Positions 53,818 through 61,724 of a stretch of DNA of 64,000 nucleotides are shown piece after piece (position 1 is the stretch's first letter; each line of letters starts with the position of its first letter). The stretch is from Bacilli bacterium (GTDB lineage: Bacteria; Bacillota_I; Bacilli_A; RF39; UBA660), in contig JAFUTV010000002.1 of assembly GCA_017484125.1 (NCBI GenBank), positions 737-64,736 of the forward strand. The letters run 5' to 3'. Position numbers and translations under genes: made by a program. The notes under the pieces were generated by a model. That model made no database searches. It saw only the letters and a list, made by a program, of their open reading frames with translations, and was not told where the DNA came from.

Positions 53818-54441
53818 TCAAAGATTATTAATTTTTTCTAAAGATTTTAGTGTAGTACCGTCAAAATATAATTCATATACATCACCTGGATTAATATTTG
53901 TATCACATACAACTTTATCTTTATAAGTTAATATAATATCATTATCACAGTTATATCCAAGTTCACACCAATTTAATAATAATGATATTAATACTACTTC
54001 ATGACTTACTATTACTACTTTAGTATAATCTTGTTTTAAAATATTCTTTAATTCTAGGCTTGCTCTTTTTTTTATATCATTAATAGATTCTCCTAGTCTT
54101 AATTTATAATCAAAATTATGATAAGTCTTATAATCAAATAAGTCCATATCTACATCGTCAGTTGCACCAAGTCTTCGATCATTAAAATTAAACGAAACAT
54201 TAATCTTTATATTATTTTCTTTAGCAATATATTTAGCAGTTGATAATGTTGAAATATAATTAGATGAATAAATACTATCAACATTTTTAAATAGCGAATA
54301 TTTTGATAGTTCTCTAGCATGGTTTTCACCTGTGACTGATAGTATTTCTTTTTCTCTTAATAATTCATCACTATCTTTTTTATTTAAAAAATTATAAGCA
54401 TTTGATAATGTTTCTAAATTTCTTACTAAATAAATTTTCAT
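53818..54441 (-). CDS. Histidine phosphatase (phosphoglycerate mutase-like) family, catalytic His replaced
   Basis: IYLVRNLE instead of RHGE; IYSS, GES, VSH retained. Confidence 0.75.
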   Translation of the reverse strand: MKIYLVRNLETLSNAYNFLNKKDSDELLREKEILSVTGENHARELSKYSLFKNVDSIYSSNYISTLSTAKYIAKENNIKINVSFNFNDRRLGATDDVDMDLFDYKTYHNFDYKLRLGESINDIKKRASLELKNILKQDYTKVVIVSHEVVLISLLLNWCELGYNCDNDIILTYKDKVVCDTNINPGDVYELYFDGTTLKSLEKINNL

Positions 54442-54908
54442 CCTAATATACCCTTAAATAATCCTAAAGAAAGTAGTCCCATAATTACACCAGCCAAAAG
54501 TACTCCTCCAAAAATGGAAACTACACTCTTTTTAAAATCCATATCTAATATTGAAGCTGCAAGTGAACCAGTTATAGCACCAGTTCCAGGTAGTGGTATT
54601 CCAACAAATAACATTAGTGCTATATAAAGGCCATGTCCTGCTTTTTTTTCTAGTTTTCTTCCACCTTTTTCTCCTTTTACTAAACAAAACCTACAAAATT
54701 TACCAATTAACTTTTTATCCTTTCCCCACTCAAATATTTTTCTAGCAAATAAATAAATAAAAGGAACAGGTACCATATTACCAATAATTGCAATAATAAA
54801 TGATTGTACTAATGGTAAATTAAAACCTACTGCATAAGGAATAGCTCCCCTTAACTCTATCAAAGGTACCATTGATACAAAAAAAACTATTAAATATTTC
54901 TTAAACAT
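54438..54908 (-). CDS. Small multidrug export family membrane protein (COG2426-like)
   Basis: SMVPLIELRGAIP, FVGIPLPGTGA.TG. Confidence 0.88.
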   Translation of the reverse strand: MFKKYLIVFFVSMVPLIELRGAIPYAVGFNLPLVQSFIIAIIGNMVPVPFIYLFARKIFEWGKDKKLIGKFCRFCLVKGEKGGRKLEKKAGHGLYIALMLFVGIPLPGTGAITGSLAASILDMDFKKSVVSIFGGVLLAGVIMGLLSLGLFKGILG

Positions 54909-54962
54909 CTATAATCACCTTAAATAATTATATAAAAAAAAATTAAGAAAGTAAAATTTTTC

Positions 54963-56411
54963 TTAATTATTTTTCTTTAAAACTAGTTCGTGTTTTAATT
55001 CTTTACGTCCCCCAATTGGGAATCTAATTTTTTCTTTATTTGGCATAATTATGTGTGCATGTAATCTTTTTAAAGATGCACCAGATAGTGCTGGATCTCC
55101 ATATCTAAAGCAAAAAGCACCACCAGGTAAATTATATTCATCTCTAATATTTATCCAAATGCTCTTTAATTCCTCCCACATTTCTTTGCTCATATCATCT
55201 ATAGAGTAGATAGGATATTTAGAAACAATTAAATACTGTTCTCCAGCATCTTGATGTGGAAATCTGTTTTTAGAAATGAACCAATAATTTGTTGTATATA
55301 AAATTTCTTGATCTATTACTTGTGGATCCAAAGGATCTTGATCACTATATTCTTTTTCCATCATTATATCAAGTTGTTCTTGTTTTCTAGCATTAGGTGG
55401 ATAAATATACTTATAATCATAATAATTAATATCATCATTTATTTCTTCTTTTTCTATTATTTTATCATCTAATAATTTAATAGTTTCTATATTATTTTTT
55501 TCAGCTAATTCATGAGATCTTTTAGACCAATTACGATCAGGATGATCTTCCAAATAATATATTTTTTTAACACCTTTTTGAATTAATACTTTCATACACT
55601 TATCGCAAGGAAATAATGTAGAATAAACAGGTGTATCTAAAACTTCAACATTCCCTAGCTTTTTTAGCAAATTAATCTCGGCATGTTCAACAGTTGCATA
55701 ATAAAGTTCACTTCTATTGACTACATCAATTTTAGGTATATTAAAATTAGAATGATTTGTCCCATAGTGCCATTCATTATTATAGTAACATGTCGCAGCA
55801 ACTGGTGTAATCCAATCAGTGGATTCTTTCATATGTTCAATAAGATTAGGTATAGGTTCCTTTAAAGAATCATCATAACCTATTCTTTCTTTAAATTCTT
55901 CGATAGCACTATTAACTTTTTCATCTAAATTTTCAATTCTATTTCTTTGTTCTGCTATTGTTATTTTTCTTATTTTATCAGACGTTGAACTTTCTGATTG
56001 TCTAGGAAGAATGGCTACATTACCACAATACTCTTCTAATTTTTTTATTTGTTCTTCATTATAATTTTCTTTTATAGCAACCAAAACATCAGGTCTTACT
56101 TCTTTAATTAGTCCCCATTTAACTTCATTAGCATCTTTAATAACAACATCATCAGCAATACCTAATAATTTTATAAAATCATATCTTTCTTCTTCAGGAA
56201 TTATAGGTCTTCCATTACCCTTTCTTTTTCTAATCTTCTCATCACTATCCATTGCAACAATTAAATAATCGCATAATTCTCTTGCCTTTTTTATATATCT
56301 TAAATGTCCTAAATGAAATAAGTCCCATGATCCTTGAACTAAACCTATTTTTTTAAAACTTTGTCTTGCTTTTTCTAATTCTATTATATCTAATTTTCCA
56401 TCATCTAACAT
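54963..56411 (-). CDS. Three-domain fusion: HIGH-type cytidylyl/adenylyltransferase, Zn-dependent dCMP/cytidine deaminase, HIT-like hydrolase
   Basis: QGSWDLFHLGH..DSD..RKG..RP..ER..STS; HAE and PCDKC; W..SKNRFP..RYG.P..SG.S..RLHAHI. Confidence 0.85.
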   Translation of the reverse strand: MLDDGKLDIIELEKARQSFKKIGLVQGSWDLFHLGHLRYIKKARELCDYLIVAMDSDEKIRKRKGNGRPIIPEEERYDFIKLLGIADDVVIKDANEVKWGLIKEVRPDVLVAIKENYNEEQIKKLEEYCGNVAILPRQSESSTSDKIRKITIAEQRNRIENLDEKVNSAIEEFKERIGYDDSLKEPIPNLIEHMKESTDWITPVAATCYYNNEWHYGTNHSNFNIPKIDVVNRSELYYATVEHAEINLLKKLGNVEVLDTPVYSTLFPCDKCMKVLIQKGVKKIYYLEDHPDRNWSKRSHELAEKNNIETIKLLDDKIIEKEEINDDINYYDYKYIYPPNARKQEQLDIMMEKEYSDQDPLDPQVIDQEILYTTNYWFISKNRFPHQDAGEQYLIVSKYPIYSIDDMSKEMWEELKSIWINIRDEYNLPGGAFCFRYGDPALSGASLKRLHAHIIMPNKEKIRFPIGGRKELKHELVLKKNN

Positions 56412-56413
56412 AC

Positions 56414-57325
56414 TTAAACACCTACTGGAATCTTTAATATTTTTTCTTTTGGATGATAATCAGATAGTTCAAAATCATCTTTCCTATAATCAAAAATACT
56501 ATCGTGTTCATTTATTATATTTAATGTAGGTAGTGGTTCTGGATCCCTATTTAACATTTCTTCAGCATATTCAAAAGTATTATTATATATATGAGCATTA
56601 CTTATTTGATGGCAAAAAACACCTGGTTCTAGATTATGTGTTTTAGCCATCGCTAATAATAGTGCCGTATATTGGGTTAAATTACTTGGAAGCCCTAAAA
56701 TAACATCACAACTTCTTTGCCACATAGTCATATCAAGTCTTCCATTAATAATATTAAAATGTATCCATCCATGGCAAGGACAAACAACAACTTTTTGTTT
56801 GTTATTTGAATTTCTAATTGTATAATATGGTATCCAAGGTGATATTAAATGAGTTTTAAGTTCTGGTCTTTCTCTCATTTGTAAATCTATCTCTTTAAAT
56901 TGATTAAACATTTGTCCATCTGCAGTAGGAAAATCATGAAAAGCTGAACCATATGAACCTGGCCCTAAATCACCAGTTTCTAGTCCTCTTTTTTGACACT
57001 TTTCTTCAGTTACCCATGGTGACCAAAACTTGCATCCGAATTCTCTTAACCCCTCATTTGTATGAACACCATTAATGAAAGCAAATAATTCACCAATAGC
57101 ACTTTTATAAAACCCCGAAATATCTCTTTCGGTAATAACTGGAGCACCATCTTTTAATATATTATACTTTCTTTGTATTCCATGTATTTCCCTAGTATAG
57201 AGTGGTTCTCCAGTATTTCCATCTAACATAGGGCTAGGATTATCTTCTCCATATTTCATTATTTCCTCAAGCAAAGATTTATATTGATATAATTTTTGCC
57301 TTTCATCATATTTACTATAATTCAT
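56414..57325 (-). CDS. thyA: Thymidylate synthase, divergent type
   Basis: PCH catalytic Cys, QRSCD..GLPSN..Y, AHIY, P.PLP.L, DF.L.DY.P..IPV; GGAGG RBS before ATG 57325. Confidence 0.92.
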   Translation of the reverse strand: MNYSKYDERQKLYQYKSLLEEIMKYGEDNPSPMLDGNTGEPLYTREIHGIQRKYNILKDGAPVITERDISGFYKSAIGELFAFINGVHTNEGLREFGCKFWSPWVTEEKCQKRGLETGDLGPGSYGSAFHDFPTADGQMFNQFKEIDLQMRERPELKTHLISPWIPYYTIRNSNNKQKVVVCPCHGWIHFNIINGRLDMTMWQRSCDVILGLPSNLTQYTALLLAMAKTHNLEPGVFCHQISNAHIYNNTFEYAEEMLNRDPEPLPTLNIINEHDSIFDYRKDDFELSDYHPKEKILKIPVGV

Positions 57326-57409
57326 AATCAAAACCTCCCTATAGTTCTTTAAATTATATTTTAACATATATATACTTTAGATAACAATGCACTTTACAAA
57401 TATTTAACA

Positions 57410-58882
57410 TCACTTTATGACTTCATTTAATTTTTGCCAAATTTTAACCATTGCATATGTGTCTAGCTCACAATATTTTAATAAAGACTCCCTAACTCTT
57501 TTCTTATCTTCTTCATTTAAGCTATCAATACTTGAAAAAAACGATGATGCTTCATCTCCCTTATGAACCATATCTAAATTATGATAATCTAATGTAGGAT
57601 CATTTGGAAATAAAGCAGGTAAAACATATTTTATAGAATAAGAGCCATCCATTTTCATAGTATAATAATCCCTATTTTTAAATGGAATTATTAAATCTTT
57701 TATATTATCTTTTATATTTAATAAATGATCTCTTAAATCAGGATAAATCATAGCAAGTTTTTCAATAACATTTTTTTCAAAACTCATATTATAAGCTAAT
57801 ACGCATACATCCCTTGGAATATCTAAAACTAATCTTTCCGCTAAAGCTCTTCTTGGATCTTCATTAGATGATTTTGCTAAAAACTCTTTATGATTAATAA
57901 TATCATTTTCTTTCTTTATATAATGGAGTGAATATTGAAATGGAATTTGCATATAAGGATTTACTCCATCAAATTTAGGTATACTTTGTTGATATGTTTC
58001 AAAATCTAAAAAGTATAATGGATAAGATAAAGTATCTAAAAATTTTTTAATATTCTTTTTATTAATATAGTCATCTTTTTTATATAAATTATATTCTATT
58101 TGTTGTTTATATTTTTCATTAATATTTTCATTTATTAAAGATTCATATGTGTATTTACCTTGACTATAATACTTTAACTTACTTTTTAAGGGCATACTTG
58201 CTATATCAAAAACATTTGGACTCTTTAGTTTTCTTGAACAATATTTATAGAAAGGACAAGGATAAGGACTAAAACAATTTTCTGAAATATCCTTATCTTT
58301 TTCTATAGTATTATTCATATAATTCTCTATACTTTTTATTTTATTTTCTACACTTAATAATTTTGATTTAGCAATATCTGTCACATCTTTTATATTAAAT
58401 AATTTATGTATATCTAATGCACCATTTCTTATATATTTATTATTTATATAAACTATTGAACACTTAGTGACATTTAAATTAAGCTTTGTAAGAACATAAT
58501 ATTGATATGATACATCCTCTAGATAAATATCACTAACATGAGTTGAACTTTTTACTTCATATATTTCATATTCATCATTATTTTTAATTAAAATATCTAC
58601 ACTACAAAAATTATTATTATAAGATAAAGAAGCCTCACATAATACTATTTTATCGCTTTTTAAATAATTATTAGTATCTTCAATCATTTGAGATAAATCT
58701 TCATTAAATTCAACTACTTTATGAGGTCCAAACAAATCTTGTGCTAGTATTCCAACTTCCGTTCCATTGTCAAATACATTATCATTATTTATATCTTCAC
58801 TTTTTTCAGGCATATTTTTTTCAAGCCATAACATCTTTTCACATTGAAATCCTTTACAGTATTTAGATTTAGATAAATACAT
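57410..58882 (-). CDS. DUF2779 protein: PD-(D/E)xK nuclease-like domain plus DEDD/RNase H-like domain
   Basis: LSKSKY..QC.K.LWL, VDIL..EVKSST, C..P.PCPF..YC, LDFET, YNMSFE, YSIK.VLP, YCELDT. Confidence 0.85.
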   Translation of the reverse strand: MYLSKSKYCKGFQCEKMLWLEKNMPEKSEDINNDNVFDNGTEVGILAQDLFGPHKVVEFNEDLSQMIEDTNNYLKSDKIVLCEASLSYNNNFCSVDILIKNNDEYEIYEVKSSTHVSDIYLEDVSYQYYVLTKLNLNVTKCSIVYINNKYIRNGALDIHKLFNIKDVTDIAKSKLLSVENKIKSIENYMNNTIEKDKDISENCFSPYPCPFYKYCSRKLKSPNVFDIASMPLKSKLKYYSQGKYTYESLINENINEKYKQQIEYNLYKKDDYINKKNIKKFLDTLSYPLYFLDFETYQQSIPKFDGVNPYMQIPFQYSLHYIKKENDIINHKEFLAKSSNEDPRRALAERLVLDIPRDVCVLAYNMSFEKNVIEKLAMIYPDLRDHLLNIKDNIKDLIIPFKNRDYYTMKMDGSYSIKYVLPALFPNDPTLDYHNLDMVHKGDEASSFFSSIDSLNEEDKKRVRESLLKYCELDTYAMVKIWQKLNEVIK

Positions 58883-58968
58883 ACTAATCACCTTGTTATA
58901 ATTTTATCACAAACTTGACTATTTTTATTAAATATATTAAAATAATTGTCTATTAAAGAGGGGATTTT

Positions 58969-60740: not shown

Positions 60741-61724
60741 TTACTTTGTCTTTTTTATTAATATTTCCTTTATTTCTTGTTTTAAACTAAATGGTTCTAC
60801 TACATCTACTTTTTCAATATTTCTAAGTACCCAATATTTAAATCCTTCTTTATTAACATTTAAAGTTACCTTAAATATATCCTTATCAATTGTTTTAAAA
60901 TCTAGTTTTTTTCCAAATAAATCAACTACATTATCTAGTAATGATACATGACATCTAACAGTTATATTAATAGGATTACCTGCAAACATAGAAACACTTG
61001 AATCCATAAATTCTTTTACATCGTTTGCTTTAATTCTGTTTGAAATATCTTTTTTTAATACTTTTAAAGAACTAATTCTATCTATACGATAAGAATACAA
61101 CTTATCATTTCCTTCTTTTAATGCAATTAAATAGAATTCTTGATTAGTATAAAATATTGCATATGGTGAAACAACAACTGTATCAACAACAATATTAGAC
61201 AATTTATTACTATCTAAATAATATTTATTATAATTAAAAGTTATTTTCTTCTTATTGTATATGGCTTCGTTAATATCTTCCATGTTTTTTATAACGGCAA
61301 TATTACTAGTTTTAACATTATCAGAATAAACTTTATAATTATTAAATTTTTCTTCTTCATAAATATTTAACATATTTAAACATTTATTTATTATATTTCT
61401 TGATATTTTAGGCGTTATATATGTTGCAAAAGAAATGGTATCCATAATTGTTCTTATTTCACCAACTTCAAAATCAGTATCCGGATCTCTTAATAAATAA
61501 TATCCTTTATTATTATCTTTTCTAGTAGAAATATCATAATCAAACTTTTCTATTAATAGATTAATATTTCTTCTTATAGTTCTTTCATCAACTTCAACAT
61601 TATAATTTTCATTTATTATATTCTTTATTTCTTTTGCACTTAACATATGATCTTCATCAGAGTATTTTCTTAACACATTTAGTATATATAATATATTGCC
61701 ATTTTTTTCATATAGTTTTTCCAT
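60741..61724 (-). CDS. WYL-domain transcriptional regulator (wHTH-WYL-WCX)
   Basis: YSDEDH.LS..ERTIRRNI..GYY HTH; VSPY..FYL..YRIDRI WYL; V.VVEP.SL WCX. Confidence 0.92.
   Translation of the reverse strand: MEKLYEKNGNILYILNVLRKYSDEDHMLSAKEIKNIINENYNVEVDERTIRRNINLLIEKFDYDISTRKDNNKGYYLLRDPDTDFEVGEIRTIMDTISFATYITPKISRNIINKCLNMLNIYEEEKFNNYKVYSDNVKTSNIAVIKNMEDINEAIYNKKKITFNYNKYYLDSNKLSNIVVDTVVVSPYAIFYTNQEFYLIALKEGNDKLYSYRIDRISSLKVLKKDISNRIKANDVKEFMDSSVSMFAGNPINITVRCHVSLLDNVVDLFGKKLDFKTIDKDIFKVTLNVNKEGFKYWVLRNIEKVDVVEPFSLKQEIKEILIKKTK

Follow-up and report, generated by a model that had tools for sequence, protein, structure and literature searches.

In the genome of a Bacilli bacterium (GenBank assembly GCA_017484125.1), a stretch of 64,000 nucleotides from contig JAFUTV010000002.1 (hereafter the window) encodes on its minus strand a divergent thymidylate synthase, ThyA, and directly behind it a protein of 482 amino acids that unites three enzyme-like domains. 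Profile matches and structure models confirmed these as a HIGH-motif cytidylyltransferase-like, a dCMP-deaminase-like and a Fhit/Hint-like HIT domain. On balance, we regard it as fairly probable that the two genes form a horizontally acquired operon for thymidylate supply, in which ThyA is paired with a fusion of three enzymes that are still separate in the thymidylate clusters of Patescibacteria (the candidate phyla radiation, CPR). The deaminase domain is most probably the source of the deoxyuridine nucleotide methylated by ThyA. Both outer domains are predicted to be catalytic as well: the transferase, with its HxGH motif, would make a bond between a nucleoside monophosphate and a phosphate, and the histidine of the HIT domain would break such a bond.

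The initial annotation of the window had read three catalytic signatures in series within this open reading frame (ORF), and the coordinates it gave for them all agree with those computed from the translation. Of the three Pfam families that it had named for a check, two matched, CTP_transf_like (residues 25-138, E = 4.3e-17) and dCMP_cyt_deam_1 (residues 194-287, 2.3e-9), whereas the HIT model gave no match in the window protein even at an E-value of 10. The best NCBIfam models were HldE domain II (1.2e-28), TagD, the anti-phage dCTP deaminase and ComEB, all far below their cut-offs. AlphaFold prediction, which had been named as a further check, was run with 119 homologues and returned three confident domains (mean predicted local distance difference test, pLDDT, 90.6). 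A Foldseek search of the PDB with this model yielded three sets of matches, namely dCMP deaminases, transferases of the HldC/TagD/CCT/ECT group and Hint-type HIT proteins, and in the alignment of the 119 sequences the catalytic residues of all three domains are invariant or nearly so. Prediction of a complex between the fusion and ThyA gave a score of 0.00, which bears neither for nor against binding.

The transferase domain exceeds the PF01467 cut-off (63 bits versus 21). It has a Rossmann-like fold with the HxGH and (I)SSTxxR motifs, its closest structural matches are HldC (5xf2, 5.4e-8) and TagD (1coz, 2.3e-7), and residues H33, G35, H36, S142, T143 and R148 are conserved. Its match to rfaE_dom_II (1.2e-28) stays below the cut-off, and neither the HldE domain II equivalog (TIGR02199, 99.7 bits versus 181.5) nor that of TagD (37.9 versus 165.4) was reached. 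Instead of a heptose or lipopolysaccharide gene context, thyA was found at 55 of 55 loci (see below).

Among structures, the deaminase domain lies nearest the dCMP deaminases: human dCMP deaminase (2w4l, 3.1e-8) and the dCMP/dCTP deaminase of PBCV-1 (7fh4, 3.3e-8) matched best, followed by the dCMP deaminases of S. mutans, T4 and S-TIM5. The domain has the cytidine deaminase (CDA) fold with the HxE and PCxxC motifs, and H243, A244, E245, P268, C269 and C272 are conserved. dCMP deaminases are described as having a second, structural zinc site in an insert before HxE and an 'NA' pair after it (PMC3239186). Residues 197-243 hold no invariant or near-invariant cysteine in the 119-sequence alignment, and after HAE the window protein reads I-N-L, so that the Asn is kept and the Ala is not. 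The ComEB equivalog was missed by far (TIGR02571, 35.5 bits versus 219.45). Two defence models matched only the deaminase core and not their full length, which includes an N-terminal kinase-like domain: the anti-phage dCTP deaminase NF041025 (35.3 bits versus 400, residues 240-292 only) and the PADLOC dCTPase (29.9 bits, 51 residues, 241-291 only).

The HIT domain is supported by its fold and by profile matches. Foldseek aligned it with Hint1 (5km6, E = 5.2e-6, TM score 0.70 normalised by target), and a profile search of the PDB with the C-terminal domain placed Fhit first (3.4e-5). PF01230 matches a homologue that is 57% identical to the window protein (P0094, 2e-6), and PF01230 or DcpS_C was matched in relatives of the domain. 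R449, H451 and H453 are invariant or nearly so among the 119 homologues. In a wider alignment of 16 sequences the central histidine, H451 (H126 of that HIT alignment), is the sole invariant residue, and the position after it is H, Q or N; relatives in CPR keep H-x-H-x-[HQ]. The domain also has a conserved N-terminal segment, YKYIYPPNARxQEQLD.

ThyA itself scores above the cut-offs of its family (PF00303, 3.1e-57, 194.2 bits versus a cut-off of 24.3; TIGR03284, 149.7 bits versus 108.35), with the PRK01827 sub-models below their cut-offs, and its best PDB matches are all thymidylate synthases (about 1e-42). The strings GPGSYGSAFHDFPT, VVVCPCHGW and GLPSN, quoted in the initial annotation, are all present in the translation. 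In the numbering of the longest, 317-residue ORF, and among 56 members of the clade, C198, H199, Q217, R218, S219, D221, N229, H259, E93, Y139, W115 and W118 are kept in 56 of 56 and Y261 in 54, and the C terminus is of the canonical type, ending in a hydrophobic I or V. In E. coli numbering, the counterparts of C146, H147, Q165, R166, S167, D169, N177, H207 and Y209 all align and are kept in 54-56 of the 56 sequences; N177 (N229 here) specifies uracil. By this alignment, the protein is a divergent ThyA but retains a catalytically complete set of residues.

The thyA-fusion pair is a conserved module, and neither a singleton nor an artefact. We searched a collection of 5.8 billion proteins (7999 scored candidates, E <= 1e-3) and obtained 280 homologues of the fusion. 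Among the 120 matches listed, 117 carry both PF01467 and PF00383 in precomputed Pfam annotation, and all but two measure 470-518 residues, the exceptions being a 652-residue variant and a 289-residue fragment of the window protein. The long variant (P0017) carries about 170 extra residues between its transferase (27-139) and its deaminase (390-459), an insert that matches no Pfam family above cut-off. In species-representative genomes, 318 stretches encode a relative, of which 77 distinct loci were kept; the match extends beyond the transferase domain in 55 of these and is confined to it in 22. A divergent thyA lies immediately upstream on the same strand in all 55 loci of the former kind and in none of the 22 latter, and the linked ThyAs are 55-71% identical to that of the window. 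When all neighbouring ORFs were clustered, no further gene proved to be conserved among the Bacillota-labelled loci. The thyA-fusion junction is bridged by contigs of another sample and another study (X4 record 11, X5 record 18), as are the linker between transferase and deaminase (X4 record 10) and the one between deaminase and HIT (X5 record 16), and an assembly artefact is thereby excluded. Two of the findings that would have undone the initial annotation, an isolated or artificial fusion and a lack of linkage to thyA elsewhere, were thus not obtained.

Split versions beside thyA, for which the initial annotation had suggested a search, were found as well. A single fused ORF occurs in the window and in 20 Bacillota-labelled loci (labels Bacilli, Bacillales, Firmicutes, Tenericutes, Erysipelotrichaceae and Ruminococcus). 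The 35 loci labelled Candidatus Saccharibacteria instead encode a transferase-deaminase protein of about 318 residues and a stand-alone HIT protein of about 153 residues; the HIT ORF is adjacent in 33 of them and lies on the opposite strand, a few kb off, in two. These stand-alone ORFs start just before YKYIYPPNAR. A genome of higher G+C content from the Saccharibacteria order (G153) has the fully unfused arrangement, tmk followed by thyA-HIT and then by separate genes for a deaminase (288 residues), a transferase (200 residues) and dihydrofolate reductase (DHFR); over 173 residues its transferase shares 38% identity with domain 1, and its HIT protein shows 29% identity over 128 residues. The initial annotation knew of no characterised protein joining the three domains, and our full-text literature searches located none, nor any description of the trio, the triple fusion or a DHFR-HIT fusion.

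Unfused clusters are found more widely in Patescibacteria. In an evenly drawn sample of 301 genomes (one of which, G375, flagged as unpublished, enters the ThyA-family and dUTPase tallies and bears no specific claim), the HIT subfamily was detected in 14 (E <= 1e-8). A ThyA-family gene is present in 14 of these 14 genomes versus 125 of the 287 others. Most CPR ThyAs lack the trio, and those accompanied by it score lower against the Pfam ThyA model. We examined 13 of the HIT-positive loci (all except that of G123). Deaminase and HIT genes occur together in all 13. The transferase gene is present in 12, the exception being a contig of 2 kb, and a full ThyA and DHFR are encoded at 11 and ten loci, respectively. 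Ten of the 13 share the usual layout, in which one strand carries thyA-folA-HIT and the opposite strand the transferase gene followed by that for the deaminase; tmk or dut is found close by in some clusters. Wherever both are present (12/12) the transferase gene precedes the deaminase gene, an order that matches that of the domains in the fusion; the two genes abut directly in ten cases and are separated by the HIT gene in L097 and L098. In the published record, transfer of thyA into Patescibacteria has been described (PMC12455944), as have thyA-bearing partners lacking folA alongside CPR folA (PMC11974145).

The two trio loci lacking a full ThyA contain ORFs of 477-515 residues with a partial ThyA match (profile positions ~82-227) beside the trio, at G344:C30:2429-2833 (L098) and G503:C2:132338-132781 (L097), and about 20 further sampled CPR genomes have similar ORFs, mostly of ~470-600 residues. 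In two CPR genomes, dUTPase-family genes lie a few hundred bases to a few kb from the thyA/trio cluster, at G247:C1:586215-586607 and G306:C2:68496-68885.

Fusions among these partners recur and provide Rosetta-stone evidence for a shared pathway. An exhaustive profile search with the HIT subfamily returned 868 representatives (E <= 1e-3); 44 of the best 150 are longer than 245 residues, and these comprise 32 DHFR-HIT fusions, one triple fusion, one deaminase-HIT fusion and ten proteins without another family. The ten (P0133, P0155, P0191, P0203, P0208, P0224, P0228, P0238, P0251 and P0259) have 250-300 residues and, for the most part, two matched stretches, with no other Pfam family, and are probably tandem HIT-HIT proteins. 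Independently of this search, clusters of the ESM Atlas, mostly from CPR phyla, contained transferase-deaminase, transferase-HIT, DHFR-HIT and stand-alone HIT forms.

The CPR deaminases bear an N-terminal extension of about 140 residues with the motif [IV]P[VA]xHxGY. Profile-profile comparison aligned it colinearly with the transferase, including HxG[YH], at a probability of 1.3%, and thus sequence alone establishes no homology. We modelled the CPR deaminase with AlphaFold (pLDDT 76.5, 10 sequences) and searched the model against 48,161 chains: residues 2-120 matched cytidylyltransferase folds (3glv_B, Z = 9.6, root mean square deviation 3.8, 109 aligned residues; 3do8, Z = 9.1; the Fom1 CyTase, 8.7; HldC, 8.6; TagD, 8.3), and the C-terminal half matched dCMP deaminases (S-TIM5, Z = 17.7). 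In the ESM Atlas the extension retrieved unnamed clusters only, all with scores below 0.9. According to this model, the CPR deaminase has a degenerate version of the transferase fold (HxGY) at its N terminus where the transferase is a separate protein, and in the fused forms the transferase with the active motif occupies the place of this degenerate domain. This arrangement suggests that transferase and deaminase work in physical contact.

The module was probably acquired horizontally. Among 120 other genomes of the order to which the window belongs (119 of them from its family), none encodes the fusion, the best hit being a single-domain match (61 bits over residues 21-153), and none encodes a ThyA of this type; 50 have a ThyA homologue, all with at most 43% identity to that of the window. 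These absences argue for acquisition from outside. In a sample of 101 genomes of the Saccharibacteria order, two encode this type of ThyA, nine another type and 90 none (E <= 1e-10). In a quick maximum-likelihood tree of ThyA (66 rows, fragment L026 left out, midpoint root) the 21 fused rows group together (SH-aLRT 93) inside a clade of 55 rows (the starred clade) shared with Saccharibacteria rows and sister to the unfused CPR rows. A resemblance to Patescibacteria proteins, implying transfer, had been suggested in the initial annotation; the own-order survey and, within the limits of a quick midpoint-rooted tree, the placement of the fused forms inside the Saccharibacteria group bear it out. 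These relationships are consistent with a stepwise fusion in gut lineages akin to Saccharibacteria and a later transfer into Bacillota, without proving that direction. G+C content is slightly raised over the module (26.7-28.0% in 54001..58000, versus 20.5-24.5% in the flanking 2-kb bins), which fits a foreign origin as well, weak as such a signal is by itself.

The assembly from which the window derives (G000) comprises 1.18 Mb in 33 contigs and is 88.85% complete; the window has about 25% G+C. At this completeness, the thyA of the window is its only ThyA-family match, and ThyX (PF02511) was not found. It also encodes thymidylate kinase and a dUTPase-family protein. Four CDA-family genes can be compared by motif: three read as guanine/cytosine-deaminase-like, TadA-like and Cdd-like, respectively, and by these motifs the fusion therefore holds the only dCMP-deaminase-type domain of the genome. 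The initial annotation had seen no DHFR gene next to thyA; we likewise found none beside the module, nor in the whole 88.85% complete assembly (PF00186).

How could three such domains serve ThyA? We infer a scheme of activation, deamination and release from the intact catalytic motifs, the order of domains and genes and the analogy to known enzymes, and the substrates, the order of the steps and any channelling between them are part of this proposal. The transferase would couple a deoxycytidine nucleotide, with dCTP as donor or dCMP as acceptor, to a phosphate-bearing partner and release pyrophosphate; the attached deaminase would act on the product; and the HIT enzyme, whose gene travels with thyA/folA, would free the monophosphate before or after the ThyA step. 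We favour this sequence because the gene order pairs the transferase with the deaminase and HIT with thyA/folA. Each half of the chemistry has precedents. On cytidine nucleotides, TagD-type enzymes form CDP-alcohols and a HIT-like enzyme hydrolyses CDP-diacylglycerol; on 5',5'-pyrophosphate-linked dinucleotides, there are the NMN and FMN adenylyltransferases as well as Fhit and aprataxin, and aprataxin-type HIT enzymes remove AMP from a 5'-phosphate. The linkage of DHFR to the trio, by fusion or adjacency, implies that dihydrofolate is made and hence that ThyA acts as a true reductive methylase. Together with the nearby tmk and, in some clusters, dut, it points to a locus for thymidylate supply and not to a DNA-hypermodification or defence island.

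Several observations weigh against this account. A transferase followed by a HIT hydrolase would be a roundabout route from dCTP to dCMP, for which one pyrophosphatase would suffice, and the dUTPase-family tally of the 301 genomes pointed to no enzyme whose displacement would give away the missing function: such genes are about equally frequent in trio genomes (8/14) and in others (201/287). The Pfam HIT model fails even on the C-terminal 155 residues of the window protein alone, and the first histidine of the HIT motif is replaced by Arg (R-L-H-A-H-I-I). The predicted template modelling score of the fusion (0.47) leaves the geometry between domains uncertain, while the individual domains are confident. 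In ThyA, three of the four E. coli phosphate-clamp arginines (R21, R166, R126', R127') are changed: the R21 position is not Arg, that of R126 is K in 56 of 56 sequences, that of R127 is T in 47 and A in nine and is followed by an invariant H, and the sole clamp arginine kept is R218, the equivalent of R166. Ordinary binding of dUMP can thus not be assumed. The RR pair is kept in 3 of 12 cluster-linked CPR ThyAs, which argues that the trio can occur without need for an altered substrate site. Neither DHFR (PF00186), serine hydroxymethyltransferase (SHMT, PF00464) nor ThyX was found in the 88.85% complete assembly, and the folate cycle that ThyA needs is therefore unaccounted for in this genome. 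Since the other module-bearing genomes contain DHFR (5/5) and mostly SHMT (4/5), the absence is specific to this assembly and may reflect the missing ~11% of the genome.

Three further proposals were rejected on such counts. A role of the trio in replacing DHFR or SHMT is contradicted by the presence of these enzymes in the other module genomes. Replacement of dUTPase or dCTP deaminase by HIT or the trio was rejected as it stands, given the dUTPase tally and the dUTPase of the window genome itself. An obligate need of the trio for a ThyA with an altered phosphate site is not upheld by the three cluster ThyAs that keep RR.

The altered clamp could be taken further, to a route in which free dUMP and dUTP never enter the pool, although we think this unlikely. 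Here the transferase would join a deoxycytidine nucleotide via a pyrophosphate bond to a nucleotide or phospho-alcohol handle. The product could be a dinucleoside 5',5'-diphosphate that resembles NAD or FAD in its build. On this tagged molecule, the tethered deaminase would change C to U, and the divergent ThyA, whose phosphate pocket is remodelled, would then add the methyl group. dTMP would finally be released by the HIT enzyme, which is encoded alongside thyA/folA or fused to them. If true, this would be a previously unknown logic of dTMP synthesis in CPR and in the gut Bacillota that borrowed it. The canonical arginine pair kept in 3 of 12 cluster ThyAs speaks against a ThyA that depends on a tagged substrate.

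Alternatively, only the deaminase may be active, with the transferase-like and HIT-like domains acting as nucleotide sensors that replace the allosteric dCTP/dTTP site and tune the supply of dUMP. Classical dCMP deaminases are under allosteric control by dCTP and dTTP, the S. mutans enzyme with bound dTTP (5c2o) is among the fold matches, the CPR deaminases carry a presumably non-catalytic transferase-fold copy, and the window protein has lost the first histidine of its HIT motif. Yet H33, G35, H36, S142, T143, R148 and H451 are conserved almost without exception across the 119 homologues, the HIT proteins of CPR retain the full H-x-H-x-[HQ], and CPR genomes keep an active-looking transferase besides the degenerate copy; a purely regulatory role consequently strikes us as improbable. 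More remote still is the synthesis of a modified pyrimidine nucleotide, or an anti-phage depletion or reshaping of the deoxynucleoside triphosphate (dNTP) pool, in place of housekeeping dTMP supply. The ThyA family does include phage hydroxymethylases and methylases, the deaminase core shows the weak local matches to NF041025 and to the PADLOC dCTPase mentioned above, the distribution is patchy and horizontal, and genes for a RecB-like DUF2779 protein and a WYL regulator are in the neighbourhood. However, no other ThyA/ThyX homologue turned up in the assembly, this ThyA conserves N229 and the canonical-type C terminus, and in relatives DHFR, in the cluster or fused to HIT, implies dihydrofolate and reductive methylation; there is linkage to tmk and dut; PADLOC recognised no complete system, the dCTPase match covering 51 residues; and the cluster sits on the chromosome and is conserved throughout a phylum. 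The modified-nucleotide and anti-phage alternatives raised in the initial annotation have thereby lost ground. Equally hard to credit is an ordinary thyA plus dCMP deaminase fused by chance to unrelated housekeeping enzymes, an envelope CDP-alcohol or ADP-heptose transferase and a generic Hint, that share no pathway with it. The best named relatives of the transferase are indeed heptose-1-phosphate adenylyltransferase and glycerol-3-phosphate cytidylyltransferase, and Hint-type proteins are ubiquitous, but the same partners recur next to thyA/folA, each as a gene of its own, in all 13 sampled CPR loci, 32 of the 44 longer HIT relatives (best 150 of 868) are DHFR-HIT fusions and thyA is linked in 55 of 55 loci, and the HldE domain II and TagD scores lie below their equivalog cut-offs.

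We therefore return to thymidylate supply by ThyA and a three-enzyme fusion. Few pathways are as well studied or as much targeted by drugs as thymidylate synthesis, and here a trio of apparently active enzymes travels with thyA/folA across a phylum, is joined to DHFR in many lineages and is compacted into one polypeptide in gut Bacillota. If the outer domains are catalytic, there is an unrecognised step or intermediate in the supply of dUMP or dTMP, which would bear on dNTP balance in ultra-small host-dependent bacteria, on annotation (these proteins now go by the name 'adenylyltransferase/cytidyltransferase family protein') and on antifolate and thymidylate inhibition in gut communities. For probing this chemistry, the handiest single protein is the fused form from Bacillota.

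In the ORF list the fusion occupies 54963..56411 (-) and the longest thyA ORF 56414..57367 (-). Reading of the sequence confirmed the gap of 2 nucleotides noted in the initial annotation: the thyA stop codon TAA (56416..56414) is followed by GT and then by the ATG of the fusion at 56411, with AGGTG upstream of this ATG inside the 3' end of thyA. From the spacing, the two genes may be translationally coupled. For thyA itself, a start at ATG 57325 is likelier than at 57367, because AGGGAGG lies 8 nucleotides upstream of the former and homologues begin to align at about residue 13-17 of the longer ORF. A promoter scan was uninformative (22 promoter-like sites versus 22.5 expected), and the terminator scan returned two terminator-like hairpins, both within thyA. 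The features are collected in Table 1.

Table 1. Features of thyA and the three-domain fusion gene, with positions in the window
Feature	Position	Strand	Basis or remark
thyA, divergent thymidylate synthase	56414..57325	-	303 aa from ATG 57325; stop codon 56414..56416; longest ORF start 57367
AGGGAGG, ribosome-binding site (putative)	57334..57340	-	8 nt upstream of thyA ATG 57325; read from sequence
2-nt spacer, thyA stop to fusion ATG	56412..56413	-	read from sequence
Three-domain ORF (transferase, deaminase, HIT), stop included	54963..56411	-	482 aa; ORF list, Pfam, AlphaFold
Domain 1, residues 1-155, HIGH-motif cytidylyltransferase-like nucleotidyltransferase	55947..56411	-	PF01467, 4.3e-17
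HLGH (H33-L-G-H36)	56304..56315	-	computed from translation
R137QSESSTSDKIR148	55968..56003	-	contains S142, T143 and R148
Helical linker, residues 156-196	55824..55946	-	model helices 162-177 and 187-196
Domain 2, residues 197-315, dCMP-deaminase-like zinc deaminase	55467..55823	-	PF00383, 2.3e-9
HAE (H243-A-E245)	55677..55685	-	computed from translation
PCDKC (P268-C-D-K-C272)	55596..55610	-	computed from translation
Variable low-confidence linker, residues 316-335	55407..55466	-	pLDDT <50 at 319-323; alignment gapped; gene-split site in Saccharibacteria-labelled loci
Domain 3, residues 336-482, Fhit/Hint-like HIT	54966..55406	-	Foldseek, PDB profile search
RLHAH (R449-L-H-A-H453)	55053..55067	-	computed from translation; H451 is the central histidine

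Directly upstream of thyA, at 57410..58891 (-), lies a gene for a 493-residue DUF2779 protein (1.2e-45) with weak RecB-like and UU173-family matches; an ORF of this cluster also stands in front of thyA in loci L015 and L020, and not in the remaining fused loci. About 3.4 kb from thyA, at 60741..61724 (-), a 327-residue WYL-domain protein with helix-turn-helix matches is encoded (PADLOC WYL, 1.2e-26), and the interval between thyA and this gene holds small unannotated ORFs and an Asn-rich membrane protein.

Compared with known systems, each part of the module has a familiar counterpart from which it departs. The ThyA of the window shares with the canonical enzymes (E. coli, L. casei, human; EC 2.1.1.45) the fold family, the Cys-His and Q-R-S-x-D motifs, the uracil Asn, the H/Y pair, the folate tryptophans, the canonical-type C terminus and a TIGR03284 score above cut-off. 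In contrast to them, it has an insertion after the folate tryptophans and non-Arg residues at the R21, R126 and R127 positions (K and T/A at the latter two throughout the clade), and it is only about 30% identical or less to ThyAs of its own order. The transferase resembles HldE domain II, HldC and TagD in its fold and its HxGH and SSTxxR motifs, but falls below every equivalog cut-off and stands in a context of thymidylate synthesis, not of envelope sugar or teichoic-acid synthesis. The HIT domain resembles the Fhit/Hint branch and aprataxin in fold, in its best profile match (Fhit) and in the invariant central histidine, and differs from Fhit and Hint in the R-L-H-A-H motif of the window protein, in the N-terminal YKYIYPPNARxQEQLD segment and in its recurrent fusion to DHFR.

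As a pathway, the module is closest to the ComEB/DCTD plus ThyA route of Gram-positives, eukaryotes and phage T4, with which it shares a zinc deaminase of dCMP-deaminase fold, with HAE and PCxxC, beside a catalytically complete ThyA and, in its relatives, linkage to DHFR, tmk and dut. Unlike ComEB and DCTD, the window deaminase lacks conserved cysteines in the second-zinc region, scores far below the ComEB cut-off and is flanked by two further catalytic-type domains. Fusion and clustering of thymidylate-cycle enzymes are themselves familiar from the DHFR-TS of protists and the bacterial thyA-folA operon, and relatives of the module do have thyA and folA side by side. In contrast to the protist DHFR-TS, the fused partners here are a transferase, a deaminase and a HIT domain, and DHFR, where it is fused (32 of the 44 longer HIT relatives), is joined to HIT and not to ThyA.

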